Program-made: the position numbers and the translations under genes
Virus record (IMG/VR): IMGVR_UViG_3300044591_002613
From: a virus
Reading direction: 5' to 3' (one strand)
Length of the DNA: 64,000 nucleotides
Part shown: positions 1 through 52,376 of the stretch, piece after piece
Position numbering within the stretch: position 1 is the first letter of the stretch
How the letters are laid out: the number at the start of each line of letters is the position of its first letter
Notes under the pieces: generated by a model
Told to the model about the DNA's origin: nothing
The model's input: only the letters and a program-made list of their open reading frames with translations
Databases searched by the model: none

Positions 1-513
1 AATAGCGGTCGAGAGTTATTCAAAACCATTCCATATTTTGGCGATTGGGCTTGCTATAAAACATGCGAACTCATGGATCAAACACTTGGTTACAGTAACC
101 TCCGCATTGACGGATTGGGAATCGAAGCCTCTGACCCTAATAAAAACACCGGACCTGTATTTGGTCTACGTTACCTATACGGTATTAACCAAAAATTTAC
201 TAAAGACATAATTCCAGAATGGGAAGCTTTAGGCTGGAATTTATCAAAAGTCTGGAATGCCCCAATTGGTCAAGTCGAGAGCTGTTTGTGTAAAGTACCT
301 AAAATATTGCATAAGGGGAGTTATGTAGTTGGACATGACATTAATGAATTTCTAGTTCTTAAAAAACCAGAATTATATCCAGATAACATATTTTGGAATT
401 TAATCAATGAATGCGGATTTGATCATAAATTTTTGCAACATCATTTTTCAGTAAAAGAAAAAACTGCGTACATTAAAACCAAACAATTGCTTTTTGTGGA
501 GGAAGCCATATGA
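1..513 (+). CDS. Amino acid:DNA transferase (ADDT / aGPT-PPlase clade 2)-like DNA hypermodification enzyme, 5'-partial
   Basis: Frame +1 is open from base 1 (NSGRELFKTIPYFGDWACYKTCELMDQ...). Motifs FGDWACYKxxELMD, GPVFGL, QVESCLCK and YVVGHDINE resemble the FGxWxxFKxxD, ETxLCK and YxxGHDxxE motifs of this family; a P-loop kinase lies nearby. Confidence 0.72.
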   Translation, partial: NSGRELFKTIPYFGDWACYKTCELMDQTLGYSNLRIDGLGIEASDPNKNTGPVFGLRYLYGINQKFTKDIIPEWEALGWNLSKVWNAPIGQVESCLCKVPKILHKGSYVVGHDINEFLVLKKPELYPDNIFWNLINECGFDHKFLQHHFSVKEKTAYIKTKQLLFVEEAI

Positions 514-839
514 AAAAGAAAAGTAAGTCAAATAAGTATAGCCATTTGAGTGATATTGAAAAAGCTTTCGTAAAGAACTATTCTTACGATGAATTGCAAA
601 TGCTAAAGACCTACAGTGTCGATAAGCTAAAGCAGATTATCGCAGAACAGAATGCGCATGTTCTAAAGGCAAAGAAGGAAATGGAGGCTAATTCAGAATT
701 CAAATCTGCACAAGAAATTTTGCAAACATTTCGTAGTGCCTTCAATGAAACAAGAAACTTTGCAGACTCTAAACGAGTATTGGCTCTTTCCTTGCTGCAG
801 AAGGAGGGGATTGTAGACATGGGTGCTGAATTAGAGTAA
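510..839 (+). CDS. Hypothetical helical protein
   Basis: 109-aa ORF with ATGA overlap to the upstream gene and GGAGG RBS. Confidence 0.75.
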   Translation: MKKKSKSNKYSHLSDIEKAFVKNYSYDELQMLKTYSVDKLKQIIAEQNAHVLKAKKEMEANSEFKSAQEILQTFRSAFNETRNFADSKRVLALSLLQKEGIVDMGAELE

Positions 840-849
840 GGGCAAAACA

Positions 850-1224
850 ATGATTGTTAATGAAACTAAAATTACATTAAAAATGTTTTGCAAAACTCTT
901 AATATCCCAGTACCTTCTACTGAAGATCATCAACTTTTTATGAAAAATTATGTAGAACAACATAATTTGGACTGGAATAATTTAACAGAAAAAATTAAAA
1001 AGAATAAAGAAAAAACATCTAGTCGACGAAAACAAAGACATAAAGAGTTAATGGAAGAACTGCGCAAGGCAGACGAAAAATTCTTTTTAGACCACGGAGC
1101 TGCTAAAGCCAAAGATCGTAATTGTCTTAAATGCAATACTGTATTTTTTTCACCAAACGGTAATAGGATTTGTACTAAATGCCATAAAACAAACCAGGAG
1201 TATATTGAGGGCTTCCATGACTAA
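850..1224 (+). CDS. Hypothetical protein with C-terminal Zn-ribbon
   Basis: CLKC-x11-CTKC motif; operonic spacing. Confidence 0.7.
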   Translation: MIVNETKITLKMFCKTLNIPVPSTEDHQLFMKNYVEQHNLDWNNLTEKIKKNKEKTSSRRKQRHKELMEELRKADEKFFLDHGAAKAKDRNCLKCNTVFFSPNGNRICTKCHKTNQEYIEGFHD

Positions 1225-1855
1225 AGTAGCAATTTTTCTAATGGGCGCAGGCGCCACTGGCAAAACGACAACTAGAAATACTTTTTGCCAGGGTGATGGC
1301 AAAGAAATTTCTAAAATGGGTAAATTTATTAAAAAACGTATGCCTAATAGAGGGGCTACAATTGAGCAGAAATATAGTATTGTTCAATACGATAATTGTG
1401 TTTTGGTTGGTAATAAAAATTCTGGCACGGATTCCATAACTACACCATCGCTGGTTAGAACGGGCTTCTTTGATGCTCTAGAGCTATCAGATACAGTTAT
1501 TATCGATGGCGTTATGTCGACCTCTCGTTGGGTAGAAATGGTTAACGAATATCGGCATAAAGAAGATATTAAAGTCGTTGTTGTACATTACGACTTTGCC
1601 GTAGAAAAGATCAGAGAGCGTCTTTCATTGCGCAGAAAAAATGCGGGCATCGTAGAAGAACGTCTTCCTGACTTAACATTTAATAATGTTCAGGTCTTTA
1701 CGGATAGAGCAAAGATGTGCGTAGGATATTTCTTGGATTTATGCCGCGCCCCTGTTACTCTAGTAAAAGTAGATTTTGAAGATTCACCCGAACAAGTAGT
1801 GCAAAAGCTACAGCAAGGAATTAAAGAATGTTTGTCTACGGCACCTTCCCTGTAG
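1217..1855 (+). CDS. P-loop nucleotide kinase, 5-hydroxymethyl-pyrimidine DNA kinase-like
   Basis: Walker A GAGATGKTT, VLVG..SGTDSI and VIIDG motifs like phage modification-associated P-loop kinases; ATG at 1217 after GAGG; adjacent to the ADDT-like gene. Confidence 0.7.
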   Translation: MTKVAIFLMGAGATGKTTTRNTFCQGDGKEISKMGKFIKKRMPNRGATIEQKYSIVQYDNCVLVGNKNSGTDSITTPSLVRTGFFDALELSDTVIIDGVMSTSRWVEMVNEYRHKEDIKVVVVHYDFAVEKIRERLSLRRKNAGIVEERLPDLTFNNVQVFTDRAKMCVGYFLDLCRAPVTLVKVDFEDSPEQVVQKLQQGIKECLSTAPSL

Positions 1856-2364
1856 TTAGCACAGAGATCCTATTTGACGTTCTTAAAAAACGCAGTAGCG
1901 ATCCTCTAGTTCAGGTGGTTGCAATTGCCGTAGACACATCAACTAATTCCGTTATTGCCTATGGCGTTAACAAAATAATTTCAGCATTTGAAAAAAATGC
2001 AAGGGCTCTTTCTGAGCTTGCGGTTGATAAAAATCCTGCCAAAAAATTCTTAGTTCGCCATGCAGAAATTGATCTTTTAGAAAAAATGACGCAAACAATG
2101 AATATTGATAAATATCAATTTATTGTAAGTATACAGCCCTGCATGGCTTGTATGACTAAACTGCTTGATAAAAATATCAATAGTATTGGTTATATTAAAG
2201 AAAATCGCCACCAAGATGAACAAGAAATTATGAAGCCTTTTTTATCCAATATCCAATATGGTAAAATAGAGCATAAAATGGTTTGCGTACCACCTTGGAT
2301 TGTAACAGAGGCCGAACTTGAACAAACTGTTAGAAATAATCGAACTATGCAAGAAAATGGCTAA
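1828..2364 (+). CDS. Zn-dependent cytidine/dCMP deaminase family protein (divergent)
   Basis: HAE and PCMAC zinc motifs; SSDPLVQVVA...IAYGVN resembles the dCMP deaminase N-terminal strand. Confidence 0.8.
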   Translation: MFVYGTFPVVSTEILFDVLKKRSSDPLVQVVAIAVDTSTNSVIAYGVNKIISAFEKNARALSELAVDKNPAKKFLVRHAEIDLLEKMTQTMNIDKYQFIVSIQPCMACMTKLLDKNINSIGYIKENRHQDEQEIMKPFLSNIQYGKIEHKMVCVPPWIVTEAELEQTVRNNRTMQENG

Positions 2365-2551
2365 ATCCACGCCTGCGGAAACTGTACAAGACAGAATGTA
2401 TAAAATTCTTGATGGTTCTGTATCTTCTATTTCCAAAAAAACTACAGTTAAAACTCCAGAAATAAAAATGCCGGAAGCCCCTAAACTTCCGGGTACATCT
2501 ATTCCCACGGGTTCTCGTCAAAAAAACAAGATTGGTAATTCCGAAGTTTAA
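2318..2551 (+). CDS. Small hypothetical protein, possibly virion-internal
   Basis: 77-aa ORF filling the gap before the convergent gene; contains MAKS and a Pro-rich tail; start uncertain. Confidence 0.5.
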   Translation: MNKLLEIIELCKKMAKSTPAETVQDRMYKILDGSVSSISKKTTVKTPEIKMPEAPKLPGTSIPTGSRQKNKIGNSEV

Positions 2552-3000
2552 ATTAATTTTGCCTGATCATTTAATATTCTTTTAATTGAATCTTCAATAA
2601 TTTTAGTCACTTCCATAACATCTTCATGATTTTTAATAAAAGCCGGATCTTCAATTCGTTTTAAATCCAGGTCTGGCAGGACCGTGTAGAGCGGCTTGCA
2701 TTTATGTATAAATTGAACATGGTTTTTATACATATAGTTGAAATGTGCGGGGGCCATATATAAAACAATATCCGCCCACTCCATTAATTCTGCCGTAAGA
2801 TGCTGAGAACGTATTGTTGGCTCCGAATAACCTAATTCAATTAAACAACGACGCATTTTTTTAGCCATTAGGTAGTTTTTACCGGCACCTTCTGCAGTTC
2901 CAGCAGATTTAACTTCCATATGCGGCGCCAGGCATTTAAGGATATGCTCCGCAGTTGGGCTGCGGAATTTATTACCGGTGCAAATGAATAAAACTTTCAT
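2548..3000 (-). CDS. Low-molecular-weight protein tyrosine phosphatase / ArsC-like protein
   Basis: VLFICTGNKFRSPTAE (CX5R loop), VKSAGT, WADIVLYM and IEDP motifs. Confidence 0.9.
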   Translation of the reverse strand: MKVLFICTGNKFRSPTAEHILKCLAPHMEVKSAGTAEGAGKNYLMAKKMRRCLIELGYSEPTIRSQHLTAELMEWADIVLYMAPAHFNYMYKNHVQFIHKCKPLYTVLPDLDLKRIEDPAFIKNHEDVMEVTKIIEDSIKRILNDQAKLI

Positions 3001-3007
3001 TTAATCC

Positions 3008-3931
3008 TCAATAAAGAGTTTGTTCGTCAACTAAGCCTTGCTCAATTAAACGTTTGTAGTTTTCTCGTACCTCAGAGCGTTTGTTATGATAAACATTAGT
3101 TTGCCTAAAAATTTTATCTAGTTCGTGGTCATACGGGTGAAAATTTTGAAACACTAAGTCTGGATTGTTTTCCAAAATCTGCTTGGGTGTATAGCCAGTA
3201 ACAAAGACTGCTTCCATAAGCAACTTAGGCCATTTATACGCCGACAGCATTTTATTTAGATCCGGCGACATAGTAAAATGCCTAAATTCAATGGTTTCGG
3301 TGTCTTCAAACACTTGCTTAAGATTTACACCAGCCCTAACCACAACATGCCACATAGGCTGCCCAAACCGATTTTTAGGGGCATGAGCCTCATAAAACTC
3401 GCGTGGTGACTTAGCATTCATCATAAGTTTATAAACTTTTTCTGATACGCGGTATCTATGGGACTTATTGCGACGACGCCATCTTGAAACAGCACCGTTA
3501 TAAAAGTCCGGATTAGAAAATTTAAGCTGTCGTTCTGGGAACGGATTTGGGTCTATGAGTTCATAGATTTCTTCGTCATATTTACGAAGATATGCAGTAA
3601 TTTTCTTTAGGGCCTCTAGATCATCCTTCAGTCCGGGAATACGAATATGAACATGCAGATTAGTAGTAAAGTTAAAGTGTTTTTTAGGCAAAAGATCATA
3701 AATTTCTTTAGTAGCGCGAAGCAACTCTTCCGGAGAGTTTTCTGGCTTCATTTGAATCTCGCCACCATATCGATTAAAAACTTTTTTAGGATCATTTGCA
3801 GTTCCATTGGAATTACAGATAGATCCATCTTTATCACACCATCTATTTCCCGGCGGAAGAATAATTTTTGTATCAACATCGCCAAGTTCTAATTCGGCGC
3901 CAAACGTCATCTTGCTTAAATCAATTGCCAT
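3008..3931 (-). CDS. Putative amidoligase (COOH-NH2 ligase, Amidoligase_2-like)
   Basis: TFGAELE, DGS, GGEI, LHVHI and TIEFRH motifs; ATG at 3931 preceded by GGAG. Confidence 0.8.
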   Translation of the reverse strand: MAIDLSKMTFGAELELGDVDTKIILPPGNRWCDKDGSICNSNGTANDPKKVFNRYGGEIQMKPENSPEELLRATKEIYDLLPKKHFNFTTNLHVHIRIPGLKDDLEALKKITAYLRKYDEEIYELIDPNPFPERQLKFSNPDFYNGAVSRWRRRNKSHRYRVSEKVYKLMMNAKSPREFYEAHAPKNRFGQPMWHVVVRAGVNLKQVFEDTETIEFRHFTMSPDLNKMLSAYKWPKLLMEAVFVTGYTPKQILENNPDLVFQNFHPYDHELDKIFRQTNVYHNKRSEVRENYKRLIEQGLVDEQTLY

Positions 3932-4025
3932 AGGCGACTCCAAGTGTATAATTTATACTAGCGATTTGCTAATATAAGACAATGGCATTAATTTCATTAA
4001 AAGTCAAGGTTTTTTGGAGAAAAGA

Positions 4026-5738
4026 ATGAGCATTCATCATCTTAAAAAAATGCACAAAATGTGTAAGGCAATGCCCGTTGATCAGGCCGTAGAAGAAATC
4101 AAAGGACCGGCTAAAGTCAATGAAGTAATGCCTAAAGTTGCTCCAGAAGATCGAGCCGATGTTTTTAACAAGTTGCGAATGGAAAAAGCAACAGAGCTAC
4201 AAAAACAGGCTATGCCAGCTGGCGGTGCAAGACCTGGGACAGAAATGAGCCCGGCTATGGTTCAAACTTCTTCTCAAACTGCAATGGCAAAAGCGGACGA
4301 AGAGAACGATGACGCTGCTCTTACAGATGCTATGAAAGATTTAAAACGTCAGAAAAGATTTAGAGATGTAGCTAAGTTAGCACAGGACATGGGCGAAGCT
4401 GCAGAGCGTAGTGGAGATGCAAAAACAGCGCAGGCTCACTATAAAACTGCTCTAAGATATCACAATAAACATGCCGAACAAGACTATACAGGAAAACCTG
4501 TTGATGTTAGTGTTCCTAAAACCGAAGCAGTAACCGTTCCAAGAAAAGTTGGTCGTGATACTGAAGTACGTCGTCAGTTTGAGCAAGATCTTGCGCCTTT
4601 GCAAGAAGAACTTAGGTCTTTAACTAAACCAAAAACCGAAGAAGAAATTAAAAACGCACAAGATCCAAAGATTGCTCCTCAAAGATTAAAAAGAATTAAA
4701 GAATTAAACGAGCAAATTTTAGACAGAAAACAAAAATTTGGCGCTGCAGCACTTGGCCTTGGCGATCCTAAATCACCTAACTATGATCCTGATTTTGAAG
4801 ATCCCGATACAAAAAGTGCTCTTTATGATCCTAATGTTTCTATGGCTGCAGAACAATTCCGCGCACAACAAAAACCCGTTTCTGAAGAAATGCCAAAAGA
4901 ATTCTTGGAACAAGAAGAAACTAGACAGGTTCCTGGGTTTGAAACAAAACGTCAATACCAAGGAAGAGCCGATCAAAGTTTATCAAGCAGAAGTTACTCA
5001 CCAGATTCTCGTGGCTCGTTGACACAATTAACAGGGCCTGGAGTAAGAGGTGTGCCTGGTCGTAGTTCTAAGTTCGGTCCTAGCGCACAGGCTCAGGCTG
5101 AACACATGGATTGGTTTTTAGCTCGTCAAGGGGCTAAGGGTGGTTCTGGACTAAGGCCACAAGGAGCGGCTGAACGAGAAGTAGGCGATGCAACCGAAGG
5201 GGCGGCGCAAGAAGCACAAAGCGTTGTCTCGCAACCAAATTATTCTCCCGGTTCTGGTGAATTCAAAAGAAAAGTCAAGCCAAAATCTGGTGGCGGAGAT
5301 GTAGTAGCAGGCGGTGGCGCGGCTGAATATGCAGCTAGAATTGCTGAACTAAAGGCTAGACAAGAGGCAGCCCAAAAACAAAAAGTTTCCGCTGAAGCTC
5401 AAAAACCACAAGAAATTCCTTCTGCGAATGAAGGATTTGTAGCAATGCCTAAAGCAGAAATTGAAAGAAGAATGAAAGAAAAACAAGGCGCAAGCGACGA
5501 ACAGGCTGCTAAGTCTATGTATAAATCTGCAGAGCAGGCTAAAAATCCAGCGTTTATGAAAAGACCAAAAGAAGGGACGGTTGCTGGCGAAATTCCAGAA
5601 TCCGACATTGTTGGTGACTATTCTAAACGAATGGGAGAAGAAAAATCTGTGAATGACAAGCCAGCAAAAAAACAAGGGTTTGGCAGCGCGGAAACTCTTA
5701 AAAAGGCCCATTCTTTATTAAAGAAGAAATATAAATAA
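4026..5738 (+). CDS. Low-complexity, probably internal head (prohead core/ejection) protein
   Basis: About 570 aa, rich in A/E/K/Q/G and hydrophilic, with several x-x-K-A/S motifs near both ends; GGAG RBS before ATG 4026. Confidence 0.55.
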   Translation: MSIHHLKKMHKMCKAMPVDQAVEEIKGPAKVNEVMPKVAPEDRADVFNKLRMEKATELQKQAMPAGGARPGTEMSPAMVQTSSQTAMAKADEENDDAALTDAMKDLKRQKRFRDVAKLAQDMGEAAERSGDAKTAQAHYKTALRYHNKHAEQDYTGKPVDVSVPKTEAVTVPRKVGRDTEVRRQFEQDLAPLQEELRSLTKPKTEEEIKNAQDPKIAPQRLKRIKELNEQILDRKQKFGAAALGLGDPKSPNYDPDFEDPDTKSALYDPNVSMAAEQFRAQQKPVSEEMPKEFLEQEETRQVPGFETKRQYQGRADQSLSSRSYSPDSRGSLTQLTGPGVRGVPGRSSKFGPSAQAQAEHMDWFLARQGAKGGSGLRPQGAAEREVGDATEGAAQEAQSVVSQPNYSPGSGEFKRKVKPKSGGGDVVAGGGAAEYAARIAELKARQEAAQKQKVSAEAQKPQEIPSANEGFVAMPKAEIERRMKEKQGASDEQAAKSMYKSAEQAKNPAFMKRPKEGTVAGEIPESDIVGDYSKRMGEEKSVNDKPAKKQGFGSAETLKKAHSLLKKKYK

Positions 5739-49738: not shown

Positions 49739-49788
49739 CGCACTTCGTTTATATAATATAATTGATTAGAAACTCATTAGGAGCTGTC

Positions 49789-50322
49789 ATGGCTGGACAA
49801 ATTCCATCATTTTTAACAGGCGCGAACCTTGTTATTCGAATCGGTGATATTCGAGTGGCGTTTGCACAAAGCCTTTCATTTCAAAGAAATGTAGCCCATA
49901 CAGCAGTCATGGGTGTTGGCGCATACGATGTTCTTGCGTTAGAACCTACCAGCTTTGCGGCTAGCGGTTCGATGCAGATTTTGCGCTGGACTGATGATAT
50001 GCTCGAAAAACGTAAAAATGACAGAGATACTCTTCCCGAAAATATGGCATCTACAGCATCTAAGCCGGATCTTGTAGGTAACTCAATCGTTAGCGATACA
50101 GCCTTCAACCCCCAAAAACTTCTATTGTCAACGACATTTGACATTGAAGTCTATGAGAAAAAGGCAGACGAGGCGCAAGTAGAAGGTACTCTTTTATTTG
50201 TGTTGAAAGATTGTCGCATTCAAAACTATAACTTCAATTTCGTTCCCGGTGAGCTTTTGGTAGAGAATGTTTCGTTTCTTTGCCGAAGAATTGAAGACCG
50301 AATTGCAAAAGCAATTGACTAA
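49789..50322 (+). CDS. Tail tube protein paralog 1
   Basis: FLTGA...I....VAFAQS.SF...GSMQI.R...FDIEVY...LKDCRI....F...ENVSF; AGGAG RBS. Confidence 0.72.
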   Translation: MAGQIPSFLTGANLVIRIGDIRVAFAQSLSFQRNVAHTAVMGVGAYDVLALEPTSFAASGSMQILRWTDDMLEKRKNDRDTLPENMASTASKPDLVGNSIVSDTAFNPQKLLLSTTFDIEVYEKKADEAQVEGTLLFVLKDCRIQNYNFNFVPGELLVENVSFLCRRIEDRIAKAID

Positions 50323-50338
50323 TTAAAGAGAGGATAAT

Positions 50339-50992
50339 ATGTCCAACAAACTTCCATTATTTGCTTCTGCGCCTCTCTGTACAATTGAGATTAATAGTAC
50401 CAAAATTGCGTATGCAGTTGGTCTAAGCCTAAACGTTGGCATCTCTCTTCAAGAGATCCGTGTTCTTGGTCAATATGAACTAGAATCAATTGAACCAATG
50501 GCTATGATGCCCGTGACCGGTTCTTTTCAGGTTATTCGTCTACTTACCCAGACGCTTCGCACAGAAAATGTGGTTGCAGCGACAGCAGCGTCAAACTCTT
50601 TAGTAAGAACAAAAGAAGAGGTTGGCGACTTAAAAGGTCTTGCAAAAGATGCTGTAATTGCTAATTCATCCGTTTCTGAACAAGGCACTGGCGCTTTAAC
50701 CGGCAGTTCAGAGCTTGCCAAGCATCTTGATCCTCGTACTATTCTTTTGTCTAAATCATTTGATATTACTATCAAAATGAAAGTTCCATCTGTTAAGCAG
50801 GGAGATGATTGGGTTCAAGGCGCGGAAACAGTATTTATGGAAATCAAAGATTGCCGACTTTCTGGTGCTAGCGCTAGCATTTCTCCTGGCGCCTTGCTTA
50901 CGGAATCGGTAGAGTTCCAAGGACTGATTGCTATTCGTAAAAAAGCTAGTAATAGCGTTGAAGCTTCTAGTGTTAAGGTTAAGGATCTTTAA
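50339..50992 (+). CDS. Tail tube protein paralog 2
   Basis: Same pattern (IAYA, LGQYE...EP, FDI, KDCRL, PG.LL.E.V.F). Confidence 0.72.
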   Translation: MSNKLPLFASAPLCTIEINSTKIAYAVGLSLNVGISLQEIRVLGQYELESIEPMAMMPVTGSFQVIRLLTQTLRTENVVAATAASNSLVRTKEEVGDLKGLAKDAVIANSSVSEQGTGALTGSSELAKHLDPRTILLSKSFDITIKMKVPSVKQGDDWVQGAETVFMEIKDCRLSGASASISPGALLTESVEFQGLIAIRKKASNSVEASSVKVKDL

Positions 50993-51702
50993 TCTTTCCG
51001 CAGCGCCTTTTTAGCTTTCTCGAAGTCTCGTTCGTATAGATGTAAACTACCGGCATTACACATAATAATGCCGGTTTTTACGTTTAATTCATCCGCAATT
51101 TTAGTTTGTAGATAGTGCATAAATTCGATGTCGTATGGAACGCCTAAGAAAATATCCCAACTACGAAAATTAATAATACAAATTAACTCATCGTTACGAA
51201 TAATAAATTGATTATTAGCGCAACATGGCGTGTCCTTGTTCCCTTCCCAAAAGTTTTTAGACTCGCCGTAATGCATTATTGCTTGCCGGCTGTCTTTGTC
51301 ACGTTTGAGAGTTTTAACAACATACTCAAATCCAGTAATGCCCCCTCCCCCCTGGGTGGCGTATTTCTTATCGAATAGAGTTAGATAACCATAGTTGCTG
51401 GTAATATTTCCATGCTCGTCGGCAATTGTTTGCCAGAACTTAGCAGGCGCAGAGTCGGCTCTAAGATTACCGCTTAGGTACCAGTCAAGCTCTTTTTTAC
51501 AGTAGTTGTCGTAGATGGGTTGGCGTTCCGGCAGGCCAGTCTGTGTCCAATCTAGTTTTATCCCAAGGTTAGGATTAATGACAAATTGTTTACCTACTAG
51601 TTCATGGATCTTCTGTCCTCTGGGGGCAGAAACGAATTGCGGGTGGCTGTAAAGTTCTTCCAAAAGATTAAAATAAACGTCATGAAAATTAGCGTAAATC
51701 AT
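50989..51702 (-). CDS. Thymidylate synthase superfamily enzyme, dCMP-type (hydroxy)methylase-like
   Basis: ELDWYLSG, SNYG, DKDSRQA, KDTPC (catalytic Cys), RSWDIFLGVPYD, GSLHLY; Asp at the E. coli ThyA Asn177 position; AGAGG RBS before ATG 51702. Confidence 0.85.
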   Translation of the reverse strand: MIYANFHDVYFNLLEELYSHPQFVSAPRGQKIHELVGKQFVINPNLGIKLDWTQTGLPERQPIYDNYCKKELDWYLSGNLRADSAPAKFWQTIADEHGNITSNYGYLTLFDKKYATQGGGGITGFEYVVKTLKRDKDSRQAIMHYGESKNFWEGNKDTPCCANNQFIIRNDELICIINFRSWDIFLGVPYDIEFMHYLQTKIADELNVKTGIIMCNAGSLHLYERDFEKAKKALRKD

Positions 51703-51755
51703 GTATTTTCCTCTTTGATACATGGTACGATTTTATTAATACGGAGACAATACGC

Positions 51756-52376
51756 ATGGGCGTTTTTCAAGAAAAAGAATTTAAAAATGCTTTACTTAGT
51801 GATATTGACGTTGCAAACGAACGCAGAAAAGCCGAGGCAAATGCTCTTCTAGACGGAAAAAGATCTCCTAATTTTCCTAATTACGGTTCTGGTGCCAGAG
51901 CAAAACTTCTTGTTAATGGCAAAACGATTGGTGCAGCTCTTGATGTTAGTTATTCAGTTACTGCAAGTGTAACCGAGGTGAGAACAATTGATCAGTATTT
52001 GCCGTGGGAAATAGTTCCGGGACAAATGTCTATAAAGGCTAACTTAAGAAGAATTGTTGATCCGAATAGATCTTTGGGATCAGATTCTTTATACTCGACA
52101 ATCCAGTCTTACCTCCACCAACCTTACGTATCTATTGAGATTAGAGATAAATTAGGTAATTTGCAATTTTATGCAAAAGGCATGTTTACAGATATTCAGG
52201 CAAATATTCAAGCTGGACAAATGTCTGTTGAAGGCGCAAGTTTTGTTGGGTATTATTGGCGAGAAAACGTTAAACAAGATTACGCTCCGGAAGACCCTGT
52301 TGACAGTGTCGATAGTTTAATTAAAAAGAAATTTACACAGAATTCTTTAGTAAAAAAAGTATCTTCAATATTTTAA
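51756..52376 (+). CDS. Tail tube-like protein paralog 3
   Basis: SGARAKLLVNGKTIG.A..VSY.V....EVRTID...PWEI.PG tube-fold pattern. Confidence 0.68.
   Translation: MGVFQEKEFKNALLSDIDVANERRKAEANALLDGKRSPNFPNYGSGARAKLLVNGKTIGAALDVSYSVTASVTEVRTIDQYLPWEIVPGQMSIKANLRRIVDPNRSLGSDSLYSTIQSYLHQPYVSIEIRDKLGNLQFYAKGMFTDIQANIQAGQMSVEGASFVGYYWRENVKQDYAPEDPVDSVDSLIKKKFTQNSLVKKVSSIF

Follow-up and report, generated by a model that had tools for sequence, protein, structure and literature searches.

A solitary gene in a virus sampled by metagenomics, positions 50989–51702 on the minus strand of IMG/VR record IMGVR_UViG_3300044591_002613, is predicted to encode a folate-dependent 5-hydroxymethylase of deoxycytidine monophosphate (dCMP), of the kind represented by bacteriophage T4 gp42. 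At the start of the same 64,000-nucleotide stretch of DNA, here called the window, lies an operon that encodes an amino acid:DNA transferase (AADT). To our knowledge, the characterized pathways that join a DNA kinase to such a transferase all begin from 5-hydroxymethyldeoxyuridine (hmdU), supplied by an Asn-type hydroxymethylase of deoxyuridine monophosphate (dUMP) or by a thymine dioxygenase. The co-existence of this operon with a cytosine-type enzyme which is, judged on a complete relative, the only thymidylate synthase (TS) family enzyme of the phage lineage suggests that a modified DNA base is reached by a route not yet described.

The hydroxymethylase gene and its active site

The minus-strand reading frame is open across 50989–51723, which would correspond to 244 amino acids. 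Because the hexamer AGAGGA stands 7 nucleotides upstream of the ATG at 51702 and the ATG at 51723 lacks a ribosome-binding site, the gene likely starts at 51702 and specifies 237 residues. Three features of this locus anchor the discussion below.

50989–51702, minus strand: TS-fold enzyme of 237 amino acids, predicted dCMP 5-hydroxymethylase (PF00303, PDB matches, residue signature, and tree)
51130–51132, minus strand: GAC codon for the Asp at the position of Escherichia coli Asn177 and T4 Asp179 (MAFFT column and codon reading)
51220–51234, minus strand: D-T-P-C-C, comprising the hydroxymethylase marker Asp143, the catalytic Cys146, and an extra Cys147 (alignment and codons)

The product matches the Pfam family Thymidylat_synt (PF00303; E 3.8e-24, 85.7 bits against a cut-off of 24.3) and PHROG 160 (E 6.6e-40). 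Its top sequence matches in the PDB are the CMP 5-hydroxymethylase MilA (E 1.3e-18) and T4 gp42 (E 3.3e-18), with ordinary thymidylate synthases ranking lower, at about 1e-12. For residue assignment, the protein was aligned with MAFFT to references drawn from annotated records: E. coli ThyA, T4 gp42, SPO1 gp29, SP10, PaMx11 gp51, Ab18, the ViI-like IME250, and SH-Ab 15599. A preliminary description of the window had reported a gapless alignment that places an Asp at E. coli Asn177, and both the MAFFT columns and the codons bear this out: residues 187–198 of the 244-residue frame, RSWDIFLGVPYD, occupy the same columns as E. coli RSCDVFLGLPFN.

In E. coli numbering, which is used throughout, the active-site columns read R21, E58, W80, Y94, D143, C146, C147, R166, S167, D169, G173, D177, H207, and Y209, with D143 encoded at 51232–51234, C146 at 51223–51225, and D169 at 51154–51156. 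The catalytic Cys146 is thus accompanied by the nucleotide-binding residues R166, S167, D169, Y94, H207, and Y209 that are expected of the TS superfamily, and to judge by these columns the catalytic and nucleotide-binding sites look intact. Asp177 recurs in every one of the 12 sequences of the immediate subclade and in 47/47 members of the wider clade that includes T4 gp42, and the identical protein, letter for letter, is found on independent metagenome contigs; the residue is therefore not a sequencing accident. Cys147 (51220–51222) is likewise common to 12/12 members of the immediate subclade and is particular to it, this position being Thr in T4-like enzymes and Asn in dUMP enzymes.

The gene stands alone on the minus strand amid plus-strand genes of the tail module (49762–52376), and the gene just downstream has a faint Pfam match to the Phi812 tail tube. 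Its stop codon overlaps that of the convergent upstream gene, an arrangement that is repeated on independent metagenome contigs. A promoter scan around the gene yielded nothing usable, and neither did a search for sigma-28-like elements.

Assignment to the cytosine type

A small set of positions is held to discriminate among members of this superfamily. Asp at position 177 denotes a dCMP substrate, Asp or Glu in place of Leu at position 143 indicates that the product bears a hydroxymethyl group, not a methyl group, through hydration of the methylene intermediate, and Asn at position 169 denotes a 5-hydroxy-dCMP synthase (PMC13326640, 2026). As cited in PMC8670742 and PMC13326640, exchanging Asn177 for Asp in TS and Asp179 for Asn in T4 gp42 inverts specificity (Hardy & Nalivaika, 1992; Liu & Santi, 1992; Graves et al., 1992). 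In the MetaGPA study, positions 177 and 147 separated the synthase homologues of modified-cytosine contigs from the others, Asp177 being enriched among the former (PMC8670742).

The window enzyme displays D143/D169/D177, exactly the T4 gp42 pattern. The six reference dUMP hydroxymethylases uniformly carry D143/N147/D169/N177 (6/6), in contrast to the Cys147 and Asp177 found here, and the C-terminal extension of the dUMP type is absent: the window enzyme has 237–244 residues, depending on its start, and gp42 has 246, versus 326–433 for the 34 Asn-type enzymes encoded on contigs with 5-HMUDK-family genes. A FastTree phylogeny of 103 sequences concurs. The window enzyme and T4 gp42 fall together in a clade of 47 members, every one of them with Asp177 (support 0.96), and the dUMP hydroxymethylases, including 6/6 references, form a clade of their own (support 0.98). 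By every published diagnostic residue as well as by phylogeny, the enzyme can be confidently assigned to the cytosine type, as the preliminary description had proposed from the Asp alone. Two further identities were considered. A 5-hydroxy-dCMP synthase of the RB69 gp48 type was rejected, since Asp169 is kept in place of Asn, and a dCMP methylase leading to 5-methylcytosine was judged unlikely because position 143 holds Asp and no bulky hydrophobic residue.

Among characterized enzymes, T4 gp42 (PDB 1b5e) and its T4-like homologues are the closest in kind, sharing the fold, the size, the D143/C146/D169/D177 signature, and the clade. Identity to gp42 is nonetheless about 29%, and Cys147 replaces its Thr. 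The genomic settings also differ. Among isolated phages the closest homologue, at 34% identity, belongs to a T4-like Acinetobacter phage and is followed directly by two glucosyltransferase genes; the window gene adjoins no glucosyltransferase and stands by itself in the tail module, opposite in strand to its neighbors, and the T4-like phages lack both the AADT and the 5-HMUDK genes of the window lineage. The RB69 gp48 and DLP3 gp80 5-hydroxy-dCMP synthases share Asp177 and an acidic residue 143 but have Asn169. MilA (PDB 5b6d), the top PDB match, has Asp at both diagnostic positions, yet it is a 325-residue bacterial enzyme of an antibiotic pathway that acts on a ribonucleotide and resides in an unrelated gene context. 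Finally, SPO1 gp29, SP10, PaMx11 gp51, IME250 gp017, and SH-Ab 15599 have the TS fold and Asp143 and come from genomes with 5-HMUDK and AADT, but they differ from the window enzyme in Asn147/Asn177, in length and C-terminal extension, and in clade.

The cytosine-type signature D143/T147/D177 was also noted in proteins of Pseudoxanthomonas phage PW916 (L015:3280–4098), Stenotrophomonas phage AXL_3, and Bacillus phage G (gp319; L023:2986–4032), which are labeled deoxyuridylate hydroxymethyltransferase or thymidylate synthase. Neither PW916 nor phage G has a 5-HMUDK or AADT gene. On these residues, the dUMP annotation of the PW916 protein is probably wrong.

A single synthase in the complete relative

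Relatives in IMG/VR extend the view beyond the window. One of them (G002, 79 kb) encodes a TS homologue and a kinase 92% and 97% identical to those of the window, and another (G001, 169 kb) is 100% complete by CheckV, with corresponding identities of 76% and 90%. The complete genome has one PF00303 match only, the orthologue of the hydroxymethylase, and no second ThyA-type synthase or ThyX was found in G001, G002, or a further relative, G003. The preliminary description had called for a search for a second, Asn-type synthase or dUMP hydroxymethylase, and in the complete relative this search came back empty. Nor does that genome encode a TET/JBP protein above cut-off, its best Tet_JBP signal (18–20 bits) being below cut-off and residing in an oxygenase that resembles prolyl-4-hydroxylase and belongs to a common viral family.

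The complete relative does supply a 5-HMUDK-family gene (PF18723; 87.2 bits, E 1.6e-24), located between those for the small and large terminase subunits, TerS and TerL. Directly after it, and overlapping it, comes the gene for the oxygenase, a 217-residue protein with a match to 2OG-FeII_Oxy_3 (E 1.8e-17) and a weak one to Tet_JBP (E 5e-4); it has no similarity to the TET protein of Rhodococcus phage Tonitrus. Elsewhere, away from the AADT operon, the genome harbors an additional and more canonical dCMP deaminase. A separate operon (L075:6599–9331) encodes an AAA_28-type kinase, a 287-residue protein without a family match, a protein resembling thymidylate kinase (TMK), with a score under the Pfam cut-off, and a member of the dUTPase family.

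The amino acid:DNA transferase and its operon

The features at the start of the window are the following.

1–513, plus strand: AADT (aGPT-Pplase2), C-terminal 170 residues (fold, hhalign, and homologues)
510–1224, plus strand: two small open reading frames of 109 and 124 amino acids in the same operon (order kept in relatives)
1205–1855, plus strand: P-loop kinase whose gene overlaps that of the deaminase (AlphaFold 2 model and Walker A GAGATGKTT)
1828–2364, plus strand: divergent zinc deaminase of the cytidine deaminase (CDA) fold, resembling dCMP deaminase, candidate deaminase of 5-hydroxymethyl-dCMP (PF00383 and PDB)
2548–3000, minus strand: low-molecular-weight phosphatase, convergent to the operon (PF01451, E 9e-15)
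3008–3943, minus strand: amidoligase-like protein, a weak match (PF12224, E 0.0013, below cut-off)

The whole AADT is available from the 79-kb relative as an orthologue of 287 residues (L012:7731–8594, minus strand). This full-length protein scores 14.2 bits against PF18724, and the orthologue in the complete relative 17.2 bits, both below the cut-off of 26.2; homologues at 26–45% identity (P0119, P0121, and P0122) do match the profile. The protein also matches the aGPT-Pplase2 protein of phage Tonitrus. Its AlphaFold 2 model (predicted local distance difference test, pLDDT, 94) retrieves PaMx11 gp46/PUGT as the top Foldseek match in the PDB over its full length (probability 1.0, TM score 0.55–0.58), and hhalign pairs the two (93.7%, E 1.9e-7) such that W133, E210, S211, and C214 coincide with W146, E243, T244, and C247. 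In PaMx11 gp46, Trp146 clamps the base, Glu243 and Thr244 are ligands of a metal that is bound to thymine O4, and Cys247 is catalytic (PMC11472151). The Trp and the Glu-Ser/Thr-x-x-Cys motif are thus kept, with E210 and C214 invariant in 15 sequences. Judged on the model and this motif, the 1–513 product is a genuine AADT in fold and catalytic apparatus, and on this point the earlier view that the window's downstream enzymes are of the hmdU type stands.

The kinase does not sustain that view. The 1205–1855 product is modeled (pLDDT 87) with an adenylate-kinase/polynucleotide-kinase fold, and searches of Pfam, PHROG, the PDB, and phage proteins returned no match. An assignment to 5-HMUDK was rejected, for there is no PF18723 profile match and the P-loop kinase fold is generic. 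Similarity to the P-loop proteins encoded between 5-HMUDK and AADT in PaMx11 (gp49) and in two further AADT records (G021 and G023) is weak (E ~0.02). PaMx11 gp49 itself (L081:6218–6787), labeled "terminase small subunit," is a P-loop protein homologous (E ~1e-23) to the kinases at that position in G021 and G023, and the window kinase gave a weak match to its PHROG, phrog_800.

The deaminase matches PF00383 (E 5e-7), the nucleoside deaminase 6l2m (E 4e-7), and, over residues 20–141, human dCMP deaminase (E 3.5e-4). It stays linked to the AADT operon in three other genomes (G001, G017, and G019), down to 48% AADT identity. It was rejected as an orthologue of the deaminases of G021 and G023, to which it has no BLAST match. 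The two small open reading frames have no family match, nor does a 574-residue protein at 4014–5738 that follows the phosphatase and amidoligase-like genes, a pair convergent to the operon.

Just upstream of the window start, as seen in the 79-kb relative (L012:8578–9483, minus strand), a 301-residue flavoprotein-like protein is encoded by a gene that overlaps the AADT gene. It has no Pfam or PDB match and is homologous to the hypothetical protein gp8 of Tonitrus (E 5e-28); as a PaMx11 gp47/NGTO homologue it was rejected for want of a significant match. The nearest relatives of the AADT are found in TET/JBP-type clusters of actinophages, and both it and its neighbor are most similar to proteins of the Tonitrus cluster, which contains TET/JBP and ParB and adjoins the terminase. 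By homology, AADT and the gp8 homologue are a conserved pair across very distant phages.

In comparison with the PaMx11 and YuA/15599 Pplase2 pathway, then, the window lineage shares the full-length transferase model, the Trp, Glu-Ser/Thr, and Cys residues, and, in the complete relative, PF18723. It differs in that the AADT is about 15% identical to gp46 and below the Pfam ADDT cut-off, in that the operon also includes genes for a deaminase, phosphatase, and amidoligase-like protein, and in that the hydroxymethylase is of the cytosine type.

Rarity and recurrence of the pairing

Among IMG/VR contigs with 5-HMUDK-family relatives, 47 of at least 30 kb and outside the window lineage were searched for PF00303. 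A homologue was present in 35 of the 47; 34 of these 35 carry N147/N177, and one has Asp. This exception (G074; pieces L194, L197–L199, and L201), a jumbo phage whose 300-kb record is complete, encodes a single Asp-type enzyme and a single deaminase alongside its AADT and three paralogues of 5-HMUDK. An AADT-based survey added two near-complete records without TET/JBP (G021 and G023), each with a single Asp-type enzyme followed by a deoxynucleoside monophosphate (dNMP) kinase and a deaminase, and each also with 5-HMUDK, P-loop kinase, and AADT genes clustered together. TET/JBP is absent from all three genomes.

Genomes that combine an Asp-type enzyme with both 5-HMUDK and AADT are therefore rare, yet they recur in several lineages. 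The preliminary description had suggested asking how often Asp-type enzymes and such transferases co-occur across phage genomes. These instances answer in part; a general association of the Asp-type clade with AADT was rejected, the transferase being found in 2/15 viral records with relatives of the window enzyme. Since those two are close relatives of the window phage, the AADT operon seems to have been added, specifically in this lineage, to a phage already possessing a cytosine-type enzyme.

A possible pathway and its alternatives

How a cytosine-type enzyme might serve a thymine-type transferase had been framed earlier as three routes: modification of 5-hydroxymethylcytosine (5-hmC) itself, deamination at the nucleotide level, or two independent modifications. 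We lean, tentatively, toward deamination, keep the first route as a rival, and add thymine oxidation as an explicit form of the third. In the pathway that we infer, the Asp-type enzyme would make 5-hydroxymethyl-dCMP from dCMP. One portion would probably be phosphorylated and enter DNA as 5-hmC, and another would be deaminated to 5-hydroxymethyl-dUMP by the CDA-fold deaminase, whose gene is translationally coupled to that of the P-loop kinase. The 5-hydroxymethyl-dUMP would in turn be phosphorylated and incorporated as hmdU. After replication, the 5-HMUDK-family protein would phosphorylate the hmdU, AADT would exchange the phosphate for an amino acid or amine, and the flavoprotein-like protein, amidoligase, and phosphatase may tailor or proofread the adduct.

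Deamination of 5-hydroxymethyl-dCMP is preferred because it gives the operon deaminase a role that the canonical deaminase does not cover, because the base specificity of 5-HMUDK and AADT need not change, and because AADT keeps its O4-metal site. It also draws on the acceptance of 5-substituted dCMP by dCMP deaminases. Several considerations weigh against it. The lack of a second synthase was established in a relative whose TS homologue and kinase are 76% and 90% identical to those of the window, and in that same genome the oxygenase that overlaps the 5-HMUDK gene could supply hydroxymethyluracil otherwise. The Asn/Asp rule derives from E. coli and Lactobacillus casei TS, T4 gp42, and a metagenome association. 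Action of the P-loop kinase on DNA is putative, and the divergent deaminase is a candidate whose substrate assignment is putative. Furthermore, deaminases accompany Asp-type enzymes in modified-cytosine phages, where they presumably make dUMP (PMC8670742), so that the presence of a deaminase alone does not discriminate.

A more radical possibility, which we regard as doubtful, is that the 5-HMUDK homologue and AADT act directly on 5-hmC, such that the DNA would carry cytosine substituted with an amino acid or amine, an as yet undescribed kind of base. The sole hydroxymethylase is after all cytosine-type, four lineages in which such an enzyme accompanies 5-HMUDK and AADT lack any other source of a hydroxymethyl group, and in G021 and G023 the genes for the Asp-type enzyme, dNMP kinase, and deaminase form a module similar to those of modified-cytosine contigs (PMC8670742). 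The Cys-addition/elimination chemistry also appears feasible on cytosine, by analogy with C5-methyltransferases and TS N177D. Yet the characterized 5-HMUDK and AADT enzymes all act on hmdU, cytosine has no O4 for the conserved Glu-Ser/Thr metal site to engage, two enzymes would have to switch base specificity, and the operon deaminase would be left idle. Among the papers searched, none reported such a base, a 5-hmC DNA kinase, AADT action on cytosine, or a route through a 5-hydroxymethyl-dCMP deaminase. In another reading, which we hold to be unlikely, the Asp-type enzyme would make only 5-hmC for DNA, and a 2-oxoglutarate/Fe(II) oxygenase would independently oxidize thymine after replication to give the hydroxymethyluracil used by 5-HMUDK and AADT; this leaves the operon deaminase unexplained. 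The position of the oxygenase gene behind PF18723 in the terminase operon speaks for such a division of labor, as does the kinship of AADT and its flavoprotein-like neighbor with the TET/JBP cluster of Tonitrus beside the terminase. Phage thymine dioxygenases are established (PMC13229309), and the AADT records that have a true TET/JBP have no synthase homologue. However, the oxygenase is prolyl-4-hydroxylase-like and unlike the Tonitrus TET, and G021, G023, and G074 have neither this oxygenase nor TET/JBP, so the recurring pattern would go unexplained.

A last reading, in which the enzyme uses dUMP, alone or together with dCMP, despite its Asp, and feeds an ordinary sequence from dCMP through dUMP and 5-hydroxymethyl-dUMP to kinase and AADT, strikes us as quite improbable. 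AADT, 5-HMUDK, deaminase, TMK-like kinase, and dUTPase do make up an ordinary hmdU-phage context, and Cys147 departs from the Thr of gp42. The dUMP-hydroxymethylase clade is moreover nested among Asp-type enzymes, so specificity has switched in evolution. Against this stand the inversion of specificity by swaps at 177/179 in TS and T4 gp42, as reported in the citing papers, the missing C-terminal extension, and the retention of N147/N177 in 34/35 other 5-HMUDK contigs, which shows that selection strongly favors Asn in enzymes that act on dUMP.

Implications

In the window lineage and at least three other lineages of uncultured phages, the sole source of hydroxymethylated pyrimidine is of the cytosine type. 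If 5-hydroxymethyl-dUMP is made via 5-hydroxymethyl-dCMP, the pathway would follow a novel sequence and give a phage deaminase a novel function; if instead the kinase and transferase act on 5-hmC, it would mean a new DNA base and a new substrate specificity for both enzyme families. For annotation, labeling phage synthase homologues as dUMP hydroxymethylases is unsafe unless positions 147 and 177 are checked. Resistance to restriction and to CRISPR depends on modified bases of this sort, which also serve as tools for DNA chemistry.

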